Assembly (NCBI GenBank): GCA_035559435.1
Contig: DATMBC010000055.1
Location: 45,859 to 109,858, forward strand
Source of the DNA: a bacterium
GTDB lineage: Bacteria > Zixibacteria > MSB-5A5 > WJJR01
Length of the DNA stretch: 64,000 nt
Direction of reading: 5' to 3'
In this document: piece after piece, positions 23,578 through 30,763 of the stretch
How the letters are laid out: each line of letters starts with the position of its first letter
Position numbering within the stretch: the stretch's first letter is position 1
Program-made: the position numbers and the translations under genes
Notes under the pieces: model-generated
Databases searched by the model: none
The model's input: the letters and a program-made list of their open reading frames with translations, nothing else
What the model was told of the DNA's origin: nothing

Positions 23578-25029
23578 ATGGCAAGGCAGGCACGTCAAAT
23601 CTGCACAATCACCGCCGATCCCCGCTTGGCCGAGCATTGGCGGAGGGCGATCGAACCCTTCGGTGGATCGCACACCGCCTTCGACGGCCTGATGACGGCG
23701 TTGCGTCGTCTGGCCGATCGCTCTCCGGACATCATCCTTCTCGATCTCGCCAACGCCGGCCTGACGGTGGAACAATTGACAGCCAAGGTCCGTCATCGCG
23801 CGCCGATGGCTGACTTGTTGCTCGTTGAGGATGCGGAGCCGGGTGGATGGAGTAAGCCGGCAACATGGCGTGATTTGTCCGCGCGCTGGGGCGCAAATCT
23901 CCTGCCGCGCGATCAGGAGATCGCCCAGTTGCGGGCGCGGTTGACCGCCCTCTGGTCGGAGCGCGACCAGGTGGCGCGTTGCGGTTGGGTGGGGCTTTCG
24001 CCTGAGATACGCGCCGCCTCGAATCTGCTGTTGGCTGCGGCGCAATCGGATGCGACCGTGCTCATCGAAGGCGAATCCGGCACCGGCAAGGAGCTGGCCG
24101 CGCGCGCCGTGCATCGCAACAGCGCTCGTGCCGCGAAACCCTTCCTGGCCCTCAATTGCTCGGCCTTTCCCGAGACACTCCTTGAAAGCGAACTCTTCGG
24201 CCACGAAAAGGGGGCGTTCACCGATGCCTTCGGCCGCAAGAAGGGCATCTTCGAGGCGGTCGACGGTGGCACGATCTTCCTCGATGAAATCGGCGAGACC
24301 AGTCCGGCGGTGCAGGCGCGTCTTCTGCGTGTGCTCGAGGAGCGTCAGGTGCGCCCGATCGGCGCGACCCGGGCATTGCCGGTCGATTTCCGTATTGTCG
24401 CCGCCACCAACCGCCATCTGCAAAGCGCCGTAGCTGATGGACACTTTCGCCGCGATCTGTATTTCCGCCTGGCGGTGGTGCAGTTGCCGCTGGCGCCATT
24501 GCGCGACCGCCGCGCCGATGTTCCGGCGCTCCTGGCCCATCATCGCGGCCAGGCCGGCGGCGCGCTGACCGGATTCCTCGACGAACCCGCGCTGGCACGG
24601 CTGGTCGACTACGACTGGCCGGGCAACATCCGCGAACTGCGCAATTTTGTCGAGCGCGCCGGCGTGCGCTTCCCCGGCCTGACGCTCGACACCGAGCGGG
24701 TCGGCGAGCTGCTGGAAAACGTCCGCCCCGGCGTCAACCTCCCGGTGGCGACCGGACGGCGCGCCGAAAATGTCGAGCGCGAGATGATTTTCGCCGCGCT
24801 CTCCGAGCTGAAACGCGACTTGGATTATCTCAAGCGTCGTGTCGACCGTCTCTCCGACACCGACCACGCCGTCAGCGGCGGGGACCGTTTTGCCTCGATG
24901 CGCGAGGTGGAGCGCGAGCGCATCGCGCTGGCTCTCCAGCAAACCCGCGGCAACCGCTCGCAGGCGGCCCGATTGCTGGGCATCGGCGAACGCACACTCT
25001 ACCGCAAGATTCGCGAGTATGGCCTCTGA
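23578..25029 (+). CDS. sigma-54-dependent NtrC-family regulator (atypical receiver-like N-terminus, AAA+ domain, Fis-type HTH)
   Basis: [52 protein letters not shown]-terminal [23 protein letters not shown]. The N-terminus has DIILLDL but lacks the usual acidic pair. No cognate histidine kinase is adjacent. Confidence 0.85.
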
Positions 25030-26668
25030 GCGTACCGCCGCATTGGCCCAATTCGTCCTATCTGTCCTATTGGTCCTATTGGTCTTATTGGCCCTTGCCC
25101 CATCCGCCGCCGCCCAGCAACCCGATATCCGCCCCTATGAATCCGAGGAGGATCTCTGGGAAGCGCTCGACCAAGGCGAGATCAGTTTCGAAGATTTCCT
25201 CGATCTTCTGGAACTGGTCCGCGCCGGCGCCGACACACTGACCAACCCTCCCTCCGACTGGGAAGCGCTTCCTGGCTCCGATGCCGGCTATCTGGCCGCC
25301 GATTCATCCCAGCCGATCACTCAACCCCGGCCCGCTGCCGTCACCGGACGTGTCGACCTGCCGCTTCTGACTTCGTGGCGCAGCGGGATCGATGCCGACT
25401 TGAATGAACCCACCGGCAGCGATGGGTACACCGTGGTCCGTTGGCAGAGCGGCGCAGTCCGCGGCCTGTTCGACTGGGAGCATGACCGCGACGAGGGCGG
25501 TCGCTGGCGACGGCGCACCCTCATCTGGCAGACACGCCGGGTCACGATGCAACTCGGCAACCTCGAACCGCGCTGGGGGAGAGGGTTGGTGGTCGGACGC
25601 CGCTCACGGATAGTGCGTTCCGTGGACCGCTCCGGCTCCTTCTGGCAACCTGCGCTCGGGCGGCACGATGGAATCGCCGCGAGCATCGCGCTGGCCCCTT
25701 CCGTGAGGGGAGATGGATTTCTCAGTTTTCTCGACAGCGACAGTCTGACTGAATGGTCGGGCGGGACGCAACTGCGTTGGTCCCGGAAAACGATGGATGT
25801 CGGCCTCAACTGGGCCAGCAGCGTCAACGGCATCGAGAGACCTGAAATTGAGGGCTTCGAGCTGTTCTCCGCTCATGAGGAGCAGGTCTATGGCGCTCAC
25901 ACACGCCTGGGGCATGGCCCGCGGCAGTTGCTGGCTGAATTCGCCATCAACAACCGCGGTGTCTCCGCCAAGGCGGTCGAATTTCTCTGGCCGCTGCAAC
26001 GCGGCCGCTTCCATGCCCGGCTATGGTCATATGGCGATGGCTTCACCAATCCCCTCGGCGGCGGGCCGGGGCACATCGACACACGCGTGGTCGGGCTTGA
26101 ATCGCGCGGAAGGGCGTTCTCCTCACGCACCGCCGGCGAGCGCGGATTCGACTTCTCGACACGGCTGGATGTCGCGCCCGGTATGCGTCTGCGCTGGGAC
26201 TGGATGACTCACCGCGAGGCGCCCGGCGAAAAGCTGGAACACGACGGCGTGTTCCGTGCCGAGGTCCAACGCGACGGTCTGCGTCTGACGCCCTTCGTCC
26301 GGGCCCGCATCGACGAGGACGAAAGCGAGTCCTACTCGCTGGGCAACTACCTCTGGTGGGGGAGGGAGGGACGGCGCCTCAATCTGCGCGCCGAGTATGG
26401 GCGCCATTACAGTCGTGAAGCGCCGTTTGTCCGCGCCGGCGTCGGGCTGGAGTGGCAGCTCAGACGGTTTGTGCGTCTGGCGCCGGCGATCCGCTGGACC
26501 GATCCCGATCTGGATCATCCCGGCGATGGATACTGGTACTTCTACTTCACCGAAGTCGTCACTCCGGCGGCCGGCCTGAAGTTCGAGGCGGCGCTGGTCT
26601 GGAAGCAACTCGAGAATCCGGACGCCAACGATCCGGTTGAATTGCGGGTGCGGCTCGCATTAAGGTAG
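25019..26668 (+). CDS. hypothetical secreted beta-rich protein (possible outer-membrane barrel)
   Basis: Signal peptide [34 protein letters not shown], an acidic helical segment, then Trp/Arg/Gly-rich beta-strand pattern. The start overlaps the regulator's stop. Confidence 0.45.
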
Positions 26669-29939: not shown

Positions 29940-30763
29940 CCCGGCGACGACTCCTGATTCCGCTGGTCGTCCTTCTCGGGCTGGCCCTCGCAAAACACGC
30001 ATTGGCGCAGGACGATGAATTCGGTTCAGCGGTGCTGCAGAGCGTCGGGGAGGTCTACGCGCTCTTGCCGGGGTCTCCCGCGGTCGTGGGCGTGCATCCG
30101 GCGTTGTCGGGTCTTGCCGACACACGCACCGCGCTGGAACTCTCTTATCGCCAACCATTCGGTTTGAGTGAACTGGAAGATCTCACGCTGGCCGCCGCGC
30201 GCCAGATCGGCCGCTGGCGCGCCGGTGGCACGGTCACGCGATCCGGCGAGGCCGGTTTGTATCAGGAATATCGCCTCACCGGCGCCATCGCCCTGACTCC
30301 CGTGCGACGGCTCGCCATCGGCGCATCGCTCATGTATGTGAGCGCCGAATTCGGCGACAATCTCTCACGGTATGCCGGCGGCTTCGGCACTCTCTCCGTC
30401 GCGGCACGTCCATGGCCGTCGCTTCATCTCGCCGCCGCGCTTCACAGTATCACGCTCGACCGAGTGTACGAGAATGACCCCTCCGATCCGGTCGTCGAAT
30501 TGTCGGCGGCGTGGACAGCCGGAGAAGAAGTGGCGCTTGGCGCCCGCTGGCGCCGGACCCGCGAGGGTGATCATCGCTTCGGTTTGGGGCAGGTTCTTTC
30601 ACTGACCGACAACGTGGAATTCCTGGCCGGATTGCGATTCGATCCGGTGCGCTACGCTCTCGGCGGACGGTTCCGCTACCGTGGCGGCGCGCTGGTCTAC
30701 ACCTATGAGGGGCATCCCGAACTGGGCGGCACGCACGCCATCGGCCTGGCGTGGAGCCGGTGA
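29936..30763 (+). CDS. hypothetical secreted / outer-membrane protein translationally coupled to the LTD protein
   Basis: Signal peptide MTRRRLLIPLVVLLGLALAKHALAQ and beta-rich sequence. ATGA overlaps the upstream stop. It lacks the PorP/SprF N-terminal QDPQFSQY motif. Confidence 0.4.
   Translation: MTRRRLLIPLVVLLGLALAKHALAQDDEFGSAVLQSVGEVYALLPGSPAVVGVHPALSGLADTRTALELSYRQPFGLSELEDLTLAAARQIGRWRAGGTVTRSGEAGLYQEYRLTGAIALTPVRRLAIGASLMYVSAEFGDNLSRYAGGFGTLSVAARPWPSLHLAAALHSITLDRVYENDPSDPVVELSAAWTAGEEVALGARWRRTREGDHRFGLGQVLSLTDNVEFLAGLRFDPVRYALGGRFRYRGGALVYTYEGHPELGGTHAIGLAWSR

Follow-up and report, generated by a model that had tools for sequence, protein, structure and literature searches.

To our knowledge, experiments on protein export by type IX secretion (the system being abbreviated T9SS) have been confined almost wholly to Bacteroidota and Fibrobacter. 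For several phyla of the Fibrobacterota-Chlorobiota-Bacteroidota (FCB) group, T9SSs have been reported or are suspected (PMC11285876). In Flavobacterium johnsoniae, genes of substrates with a type B C-terminal domain (CTD) commonly have a porP/sprF-like gene directly 3' of them, encoding a cognate shuttle which receives its substrate from the translocon and sets where it ends (PMC12618676). FadL-family barrels also anchor surface proteins in FCB bacteria, as in the pairs PorV-PorU, PorQ-PorZ and BamG-BamH (PMC12611786). A literature search gave no paper tying the Zixibacteria to type IX secretion, and nothing relevant on secretion systems of this phylum. The locus described here lies in a stretch of 64,000 nucleotides from a zixibacterium (assembly GCA_035559435.1, contig DATMBC010000055.1, positions 45,859 to 109,858), hereafter called the window. 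It consists of four plus-strand genes, coding for an enhancer-binding protein (EBP) of the NtrC family and three putative envelope proteins named G2, G3 and G4 (Table 1).

The original prediction, made from the letters of the window, had read these genes as a sigma-54-controlled module with a cargo protein of four lamin-tail domain (LTD) repeats and its dedicated outer-membrane partners. Based on the analysis below, we lean, with some reserve, towards an outer-membrane module that is conserved across the phylum Zixibacteria and follows the logic of a T9SS cargo paired with a cognate shuttle or anchor. The open reading frame (ORF) list and translations of the window contain the four consecutive ORFs in the tight packing that had been predicted, each start overlapping the preceding stop or lying at most 4 nt from it: EBP and G2 overlap by 11 nt, G2 and G3 are separated by 4 nt, and G3 and G4 overlap by 4 nt (ATGA). 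The start codon chosen for G2 is backed by orthologues using the same ATG. With a GC content at third codon positions of 0.73-0.77, as in the neighbouring genes (GC of the window about 64%), and with orthologues in about 30 independent loci, the four ORFs are real genes.

The LTD protein and its predicted barrel partners

G3 matched the LTD model PF00932 in four stretches (3.5e-49, 166.1 bits against a cut-off of 34.3). Four units, delimited by an LxISEYxA motif at the start and a TPGxPNS motif at the end, could be laid out along the 1088-aa protein, in agreement with the predicted fourfold repeat. Its architecture comprises a signal peptide, three LTDs each followed by a CARDB-like spacer (the CARDB matches are weak), a fourth LTD and a C-terminal Ig-like sorting domain; no catalytic domain was found by Pfam. 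As read from the sequence, the signal peptide is of the Sec type at the N-terminus and the tail stands at the extreme C-terminus, and G3 is a putative surface or secreted cargo.

The tail of G3 matched FlgD_ig PF13860 (3e-7, 30.7 bits, cut-off 27) and carries the motifs SPNP, L-T-x-K-I-F-D-x-x-G-x-x-V (LTLKIFDxxG) and W-x-G-x-D-x-x-G-x-x-x-x-P-G-x-Y. These last 95 residues are the best-conserved part among G3 orthologues and are present in all of them; orthologous LTD proteins have two LTDs in more distant lineages and four in that of the window, with the tail unchanged. A profile of eight G3 tails, searched against 5.8e9 sequences, retrieved 162 proteins carrying FlgD_ig, CHU_C (PF13585) and Por_Secre_tail (PF18962), and the matches with PF18962 and/or PF13585 had E-values of 1e-6 to 1e-10 or better. 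Among the names of the retrieved proteins were 'T9SS type A sorting domain-containing protein' (Fibrobacteres, Krumholzibacteria, Eisenbacteria) and 'gliding motility-associated C-terminal domain-containing protein' (Ignavibacteria). CHU_C is taken here to be the family of type B CTDs and Por_Secre_tail that of type A. Because the profile retrieves proteins with these two domains, the G3 tail is judged homologous to T9SS sorting domains, via the profile rather than a direct model match. The window also encodes a 565-aa subtilase (Peptidase_S8), of which the ~110 residues after the catalytic domain match the G3-tail profile very weakly (E 1.6); it is not evidently a second CTD cargo.

G4, for which a secreted beta-rich protein of 275 aa had been predicted, has a signal peptide in its sequence, and its AlphaFold model (predicted local distance difference test score, pLDDT, 82) is a transmembrane beta-barrel of 14 strands with short N-terminal helices. 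The model is superposable on PorV as a 14-strand FadL-type barrel, the fold of PorV and PorQ, and thereby places G4 in the PorV/FadL fold. Among 1.84 billion representatives, a G4 profile built from 13 orthologues found 422 proteins at E<=1e-3, nearly all of them of 260-290 aa and aligned end to end; a profile search against PDB sequences gave nothing meaningful. Scanning of 121 of the 422 relatives, which are 16-29% identical to G4, gave NCBIfam matches to PorV_fam (50, best 1.5e-29), PorQ (32), PorP/SprF (14), PorV2 (9), PorV (3) and BamG (2), and Pfam matches to TraF_2 (11), PorP_SprF (10) and Toluene_X (6). Since the relatives match PorV, PorQ and PorP models, G4 is classified as a divergent PorV/PorQ/PorP-like protein of the FadL superfamily, a membership by fold and transitive homology. 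Its gene lies directly downstream of a CTD-bearing cargo gene in the window and in the loci L001, L003, L021, L022, L023, L034 and L036.

G2 likewise conforms to the signal-peptide, beta-rich protein of 549 aa that had been predicted. A signal peptide is present, and the AlphaFold model (pLDDT 79) has a helical N-terminal region followed by 26 beta segments. As two of these are short, the model gives an outer-membrane beta-barrel of about 24 transmembrane strands. No Pfam or NCBIfam model matched, Usher and TonB_dep_Rec included, and a G2 profile gave nothing meaningful against PDB sequences. Judged by these searches G2 belongs to no described family and would represent a new family of outer-membrane barrels with no relative in Pfam, NCBIfam or PDB sequences; for this protein, the statement that the system is not a described one holds. 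Among 5.8 billion clustered proteins, 40 homologues were found, all named ones from metagenome-assembled genomes (MAGs) of Zixibacteria. The best structural matches of the model were chaperone-usher pores (FimD, PapC) and the barrels of TonB-dependent transporters, with TM-scores (template modelling scores) <=0.56. In the conserved acidic helical N-terminal region, two motifs are kept even in the 22%-identical homologue of L023. This region should face the periplasm, where the motifs may form an interaction module; Pfam gave no match for it. A ComEA-like helix-hairpin-helix at the N-terminus (an LPG motif, and one G4 relative fused to such a domain) was considered and dropped, since the N-terminal fragment had no Pfam support.

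Uptake would be another use for such proteins, with G3 as a polymer-binding surface protein, G2 as the import channel as in SusC/SusD-like pairs and G4 as a FadL-type transporter. Extracellular nucleases are among the hydrolases that carry LTDs, and the operon ends in a nucleotide-metabolism gene encoding a dGTPase-like HD protein. We consider this use very improbable: G2 has no plug domain, TonB box or TonB_dep_Rec match, mature G4 counts ~250 residues against ~420 in FadL transporters, the G4 relatives match PorV, PorQ and PorP far more often than Toluene_X, and G3 is devoid of a catalytic domain.

In the module favoured here, G3 would be exported by Sec by means of its signal peptide; it carries a C-terminal Ig-like sorting domain that is, by profile, homologous to T9SS CTDs. 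G4, translationally coupled to G3, belongs by fold and transitive homology to the PorV/PorQ/PorP superfamily, as a small FadL-fold barrel with 14 strands. A protein with a Sec signal and a CTD-like tail and a coupled PorV/PorQ/PorP-like barrel mirror the cargo/shuttle arrangement. The most likely task of G4 is to bind the tail of G3; by analogy, it would hold, deliver or release the LTD-repeat protein at the cell surface. G2 may belong to this outer-membrane assembly as its third, obligatory member, acting as conduit, docking platform or co-anchor. The EBP, G2-G4 and probably the dGTPase-like gene would be co-transcribed from a sigma-70-type promoter, with the EBP co-expressed with the module rather than shown as its controller and with p125, a protein of 125 aa encoded further downstream, as its probable direct sigma-54 target. 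The predicted scheme of a cargo plus dedicated outer-membrane partners is borne out by the CTD-like tail of G3, the PorV/FadL fold of G4, the large G2 barrel and their co-conservation.

Several points weigh against this module. The G3 tail gave no match to TIGR04183 or PF18962 at E<=0.1 (Pfam, NCBIfam); of the predicted T9SS-style domain, the FlgD_ig match and the reach of the tail profile to PF18962/PF13585 proteins stand, but the direct assignment does not. G4 itself had no Pfam or NCBIfam match at E<=0.1, the models of PorV/PorQ (NF033709, NF033710, NF033711) and PorP/SprF (TIGR03519 / PF11751) included, and the PorV and TIGR03519 models found no direct match among the window proteins checked with NCBIfam and Pfam. 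The T9SS link of the G3 tail and of G4 is, on these searches, a transitive one, and the role assigned to G2 is a guess. Pfam identified no T9SS core gene (SprA, GldK-N/PorK-N, PorU) among the ~55 ORFs of the 64-kb window. Finally, the conserved block includes housekeeping genes (dGTPase, holA), and part of the co-conservation could be plain synteny.

The one hint of a T9SS core gene is an SprA_N protein, of the T9SS translocon family, in locus L018. It counts 2021 aa (E 6e-39; 660-6725, plus strand) and is encoded 3 kb upstream of a 35%-identical G2 homologue (9878-11272, plus strand); HAD, RsmE and GlnA genes lie between. A tblastn search with the housekeeping genes of L018, meant to relate it to the window organism, gave no match, so L018 is linked to the window by the G2 homologue alone.

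The T9SS core genes missing from the window, and the strict co-conservation of G2, which stays beside the cargo and G4 even where its identity is 22-28%, would suit an autonomous mini-secretion system, in which G2 is the conduit and G4 the collector for the CTD-tagged LTD protein and SprA/PorKLMN are dispensed with. Such a system is regarded as unlikely. The structural matches of G2 are generic to large barrels; TonB-dependent receptors score equally. Neither an energy source nor a periplasmic partner is apparent. The CTD family is found on many other proteins of FCB phyla, which argues for a general pathway, and at least one genome that has a G2 homologue also encodes an SprA_N protein. Similarly doubtful is a bolder version, in which G2 as an usher-sized 24-strand pore and G4 as a PorV-like collector would make up a compact, dedicated export and anchoring device for one CTD protein, independent of SprA/PorKLMN or else their precursor or offshoot, and co-expressed with an orphan EBP whose RNase H-like sigma-54 target may couple the state of the envelope to a cytoplasmic response.

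Conservation of the gene cluster

A scan of 185,579 species genomes yielded 13 loci, all in MAGs of the Zixibacteria type, and nine more came from a scan of metagenomes; a further scan of that kind, made with the G2 homologue of the low-GC locus L023, gave no match. The usual order, EBP-G2-LTD protein-G4-dGTPase-p125-holA, was found in nearly every locus that was long enough. Identity to the window amounted to 62-95% for the EBP, 41-89% for G2, 44-89% for G3, 36-94% for G4 and 71-97% for the dGTPase, a spread which fits faster evolution of exposed proteins. Some of the MAGs with this Zixibacteria-type operon (L006, L007, L012, L013, L018) bear the title 'uncultured Ignavibacteria bacterium' or else 'Acidobacteriota bacterium'; in one oddly titled MAG the proteins are 89-97% identical to those of the window, and the labels look like placeholders or mis-assignments.

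More distant lineages were reached via the matches of the G4 profile. Locus L021 (55% GC) encodes homologues of G2 (28% identity) and G4 and, as the counterpart of G3, a 581-aa LTD/FlgD_ig protein. There an MGMT-like gene, in place of the dGTPase, follows the G4 homologue. In L023 (38% GC), the EBP (38% identity), a 548-aa G2 homologue (22%, E 1e-15), the G4 homologue (23%) and the dGTPase (55%) were all recognised, the cargo being a 577-aa LTD protein with CHU_C (weak) and FlgD_ig matches; a Ser/Thr kinase gene stands after the dGTPase. On each of the short contigs L022, L034 and L036, the gene of a CTD protein is accompanied by that of a G4 homologue and by the dGTPase gene. The 4-nt overlap of the G3 stop and G4 start is kept in the window, L001, L022, L023 and L034. 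From 38% to 64% GC, the dGTPase-like gene follows G4 in nearly all lineages sampled (L022, L023, L034 and L036 included), often after a gap of 20-60 nt, and a nucleotide-metabolism gene is thus tied very persistently to an outer-membrane operon.

The cluster is flanked upstream by housekeeping genes (LptF/LptG, an HD-OB protein, MreB and RNase R) and downstream by the genes of the dGTPase-like HD protein, p125 and HolA. RNase R is gone from the upstream side in L003, L009, L010 and L012, the EBP still being there. L027 has G2-G4 with no EBP upstream and L030 has no G3 after G2; Pfam gave nothing informative on the neighbouring ORFs in these two loci. Insertions between EBP and G2 were seen as a 271-aa ORF in L003 (9122-9937) and L016, and as a DNA-methylase-like ORF with a 200-aa ORF in L028 (8069-9600) and L031, and a 2.5-kb insert separates G2 from G3 in L013 (1426-3944). 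Because G2, G3 and G4 are kept together despite the changes in the flanks and a GC shift of 26 points, the trio is treated as a unit, with the EBP and the dGTPase-like gene as unusually faithful companions. Judged from these comparisons the gene cluster is conserved throughout the uncultured phylum Zixibacteria, and its genes are co-conserved far beyond close relatives.

That the four genes form no functional module and are neighbours merely through a phylum-wide synteny running from RNase R to dGTPase and holA would agree with the housekeeping flanks, which are conserved along with them in many loci. It is nevertheless hardly credible. The upstream flanks differ in the four loci without RNase R and the downstream flank differs in L021, while the trio stays together; the start/stop overlaps persist across 38% to 64% GC; and all three products are envelope proteins with complementary features, the CTD and the PorV-like barrel among them.

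Promoters and the enhancer-binding protein

The EBP matched Sigma54_activat PF00158 (2e-65), AAA_lid_14 and HTH_8 PF02954 (4e-16), the last a helix-turn-helix (HTH) family, and scored far below every cut-off of the NCBIfam equivalogs. Response_reg found no match in it by Pfam. A profile of the N-terminal ~125 residues of ten orthologues matched response-regulator receivers of the PDB (best E 2e-8), with Asp56 invariant across the receiver alignment, and this part is considered a divergent receiver; the NtrC-like activator with an atypical receiver had thus been recognised correctly. Its sigma-54 contact loop reads GAFTDA, not GAFTGA, in the window and in eight orthologues, and GSFTGA in the distant L023 homologue. 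A second sigma-54 activator of the window, of 741 aa, has an N-terminal MalT-like region of tetratricopeptide repeats and an AAA+ domain with the canonical GAFTGA; HTH_8 found no match in it by Pfam.

Between positions 23300 and 32700, the only promoter-like site on the plus strand is a sigma-70-like element upstream of the EBP, conserved in L001, and no convincing terminators were found between the genes. This site is likely the promoter of the whole EBP-G2-G3-G4 transcription unit, of which the dGTPase-like gene is possibly the last member.

Control of the trio by sigma-54, as originally predicted, found no support in the promoter searches. Matches to TGGCAC-N5-TTGCW number 18 in the window against 26.8 expected from shuffles, that is, there is no enrichment, and none of the 12 loci, nor L023, has a -24/-12 element with <=2 mismatches in front of G2, G3 or G4. 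Candidates between EBP and G2 or in the 3' end of the EBP gene were rejected as 3-mismatch matches at chance level that are not conserved. The alternative that the EBP activates a sigma-54 promoter driving G2-G3-G4, the regulon being switched on through a signal to the atypical receiver, draws on a genuine EBP (AAA+, HTH and receiver-like domains) directly upstream, which keeps this place in almost every locus, even in L023 with its 38% GC. It is held to be unlikely in view of the missing elements and of the sigma-70-like promoter upstream of the EBP. Furthermore, in the window, L001 and L023 the start of G2 either overlaps the EBP stop or almost touches it, so that a promoter would find no space between them; the contact loop is the GAFTDA variant; L027 has G2-G4 with no upstream EBP; and the conserved sigma-54 promoter and a dyad precede p125.

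A -24/-12 element is located 26-46 nt upstream of p125 in 10 of the 12 loci at <=2 mismatches (CGGCACGGGCTTTGCA in the window). When this intergenic region was aligned for 11 loci that are otherwise unalignable, two conserved islands emerged, GGCA-N7-TTGC, invariant in 11/11, and, some 100-200 nt farther upstream, a TGCA-N6-TGCA dyad. The dyad is a candidate enhancer, to which the EBP would bind. Since p125 has the one conserved -24/-12 promoter of the block, it is likely the sigma-54-dependent gene of the block, and the EBP, as the obvious candidate, is its probable activator. p125 has no Pfam match; a profile of 11 orthologues matched Sulfolobus RNase HI (3aly, 2ehg; E 7e-4), and the first catalytic Asp seems to be missing. 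A sigma-54-dependent RNase H-like protein is unusual. An EBP beside a gene cluster does not prove sigma-54 control, nor is it evidence for it, and a tempting mis-annotation is corrected here: the real sigma-54 promoter serves another gene, 7 kb off.

Elsewhere in the window, a perfect sigma-54 consensus occurs in a lower-GC stretch (TGGCACAAATCTTGCA). No convincing ORF lies downstream of it, where ORFs of 45 aa and 44 aa are all that precedes tRNA-Leu and secG on the opposite strand. The site may serve a small RNA or have arisen by chance. Beside tRNA-Leu, a match to the Rfam motif DUF3800-VI RNA was found (37.9 bits against a gathering threshold of 35). Two adjoining small OMP_b-brl genes lie between gap and pfk, where they interrupt the glycolysis gene row secG-tpi-pgk-gap-...-pfk.

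Table 1. Positions of the features discussed, numbered from the first nucleotide of the window
Feature	Position	Strand	Details
Sigma-70-like promoter	23528-23557	+	TTGCCA-N18-TATTAT, TG-extended -10; upstream of EBP
EBP	23578-25029	+	483 aa
EBP domains			receiver aa 1-~125 (Asp56); AAA+ sigma-54 interaction aa 139-303; Fis-type HTH aa 441-481
EBP contact loop	24211-24228	+	GAFTDA, aa 212-217
G2	25019-26668	+	549 aa; ATG start inside longer ORF from 24839
G2 acidic helical N-terminal region	25109-25360	+	aa 31-114
G3	26673-29939	+	1088 aa
LTD repeat 1	26748-27233	+	aa 26-187
LTD repeat 2	27576-28025	+	aa 302-451
LTD repeat 3	28389-28838	+	aa 573-722
LTD repeat 4	29178-29630	+	aa 836-986
G3 C-terminal domain	29652-29936	+	aa 994-1088; FlgD_ig / T9SS-CTD-like
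G4	29936-30763	+	275 aa
dGTPase-like HD phosphohydrolase	30823-31995	+	Pfam HD and HD_assoc; next gene after G4
TGCA-N6-TGCA dyad	32024-32037	+	~100 nt upstream of -24/-12 element; sole occurrence in the window
Sigma-54 -24/-12 element	32136-32151	+	46 nt upstream of p125; 1 mismatch to TGGCAC-N5-TTGCW
p125	32197-32574	+	125 aa; conserved; RNase HI-like by profile
Perfect sigma-54 consensus	445-460	+	
DUF3800-VI RNA motif match	744-796	-	
Two OMP_b-brl genes	4724-6232	-	231 and 265 aa
Second sigma-54 activator	8697-10922	+	741 aa
Subtilase (Peptidase_S8)	40503-42200	+	565 aa

Comparison with known systems

If the favoured module is real, a cargo with a cognate FadL-fold shuttle would be a conserved, single-copy feature of the core genome of an uncultured FCB phylum, and G2 would add a new family of outer-membrane barrels. 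The trio would also offer a small, well-delimited three-protein system for the recognition of CTD tails by PorV-like barrels.

The EBP has the build of NtrC, AtoC and ZraR, with a receiver, an AAA+ sigma-54 interaction domain and a Fis-type HTH. It differs from them in a receiver too divergent for the Pfam model Response_reg, in its GAFTDA loop and in having no adjoining kinase gene. G2 is similar in barrel size to FimD, PapC and TonB-dependent transporters (22-24 strands). Its identity to these is 7-11%, however, it has no plug, usher N- or C-domains or TonB box, and their family models do not match it; on the model, the resemblance is one of size class only.

The G4 relatives matching PorV_fam and PorQ connect the locus to PorV-PorU and PorQ-PorZ of Porphyromonas gingivalis and to SprA-PorV (PDB 6h3i). 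Barrels of the PorV/PorQ group have 14 strands and hold CTD proteins at the surface, and G4 likewise is modelled with 14 strands. In contrast to PorV and PorQ, G4 is shorter (275 aa against 345-390 aa), lacks direct membership by hidden Markov model and appears dedicated to one adjoining cargo instead of many, and no PorU-like sortase was seen. BamG-BamH stands further off: the BamG model is matched by only two of the 121 scanned G4 relatives, the partner is here a Sec/CTD protein, not a lipoprotein, and no bamA or bamD gene is adjacent.

The closest parallel in gene arrangement is sprB-sprF of F. johnsoniae (sprCDBF). The host here is a zixibacterium, and the 24-strand G2 is, judged by family searches, without counterpart in that operon. 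The G3 tail of ~95 aa is FlgD_ig-like and of type A size, whereas type B CTDs measure 150-235 aa, and G4 itself remains below the PorP/SprF model, although 14 of its 121 scanned relatives match TIGR03519. As in sprCDBF, further accessory envelope genes share the operon (PMC12618676). In both systems, a large repeat-rich protein with a C-terminal sorting domain is followed directly by the gene of a small FadL-fold barrel, which at the zixibacterial locus is joined to its cargo gene by overlapping codons.

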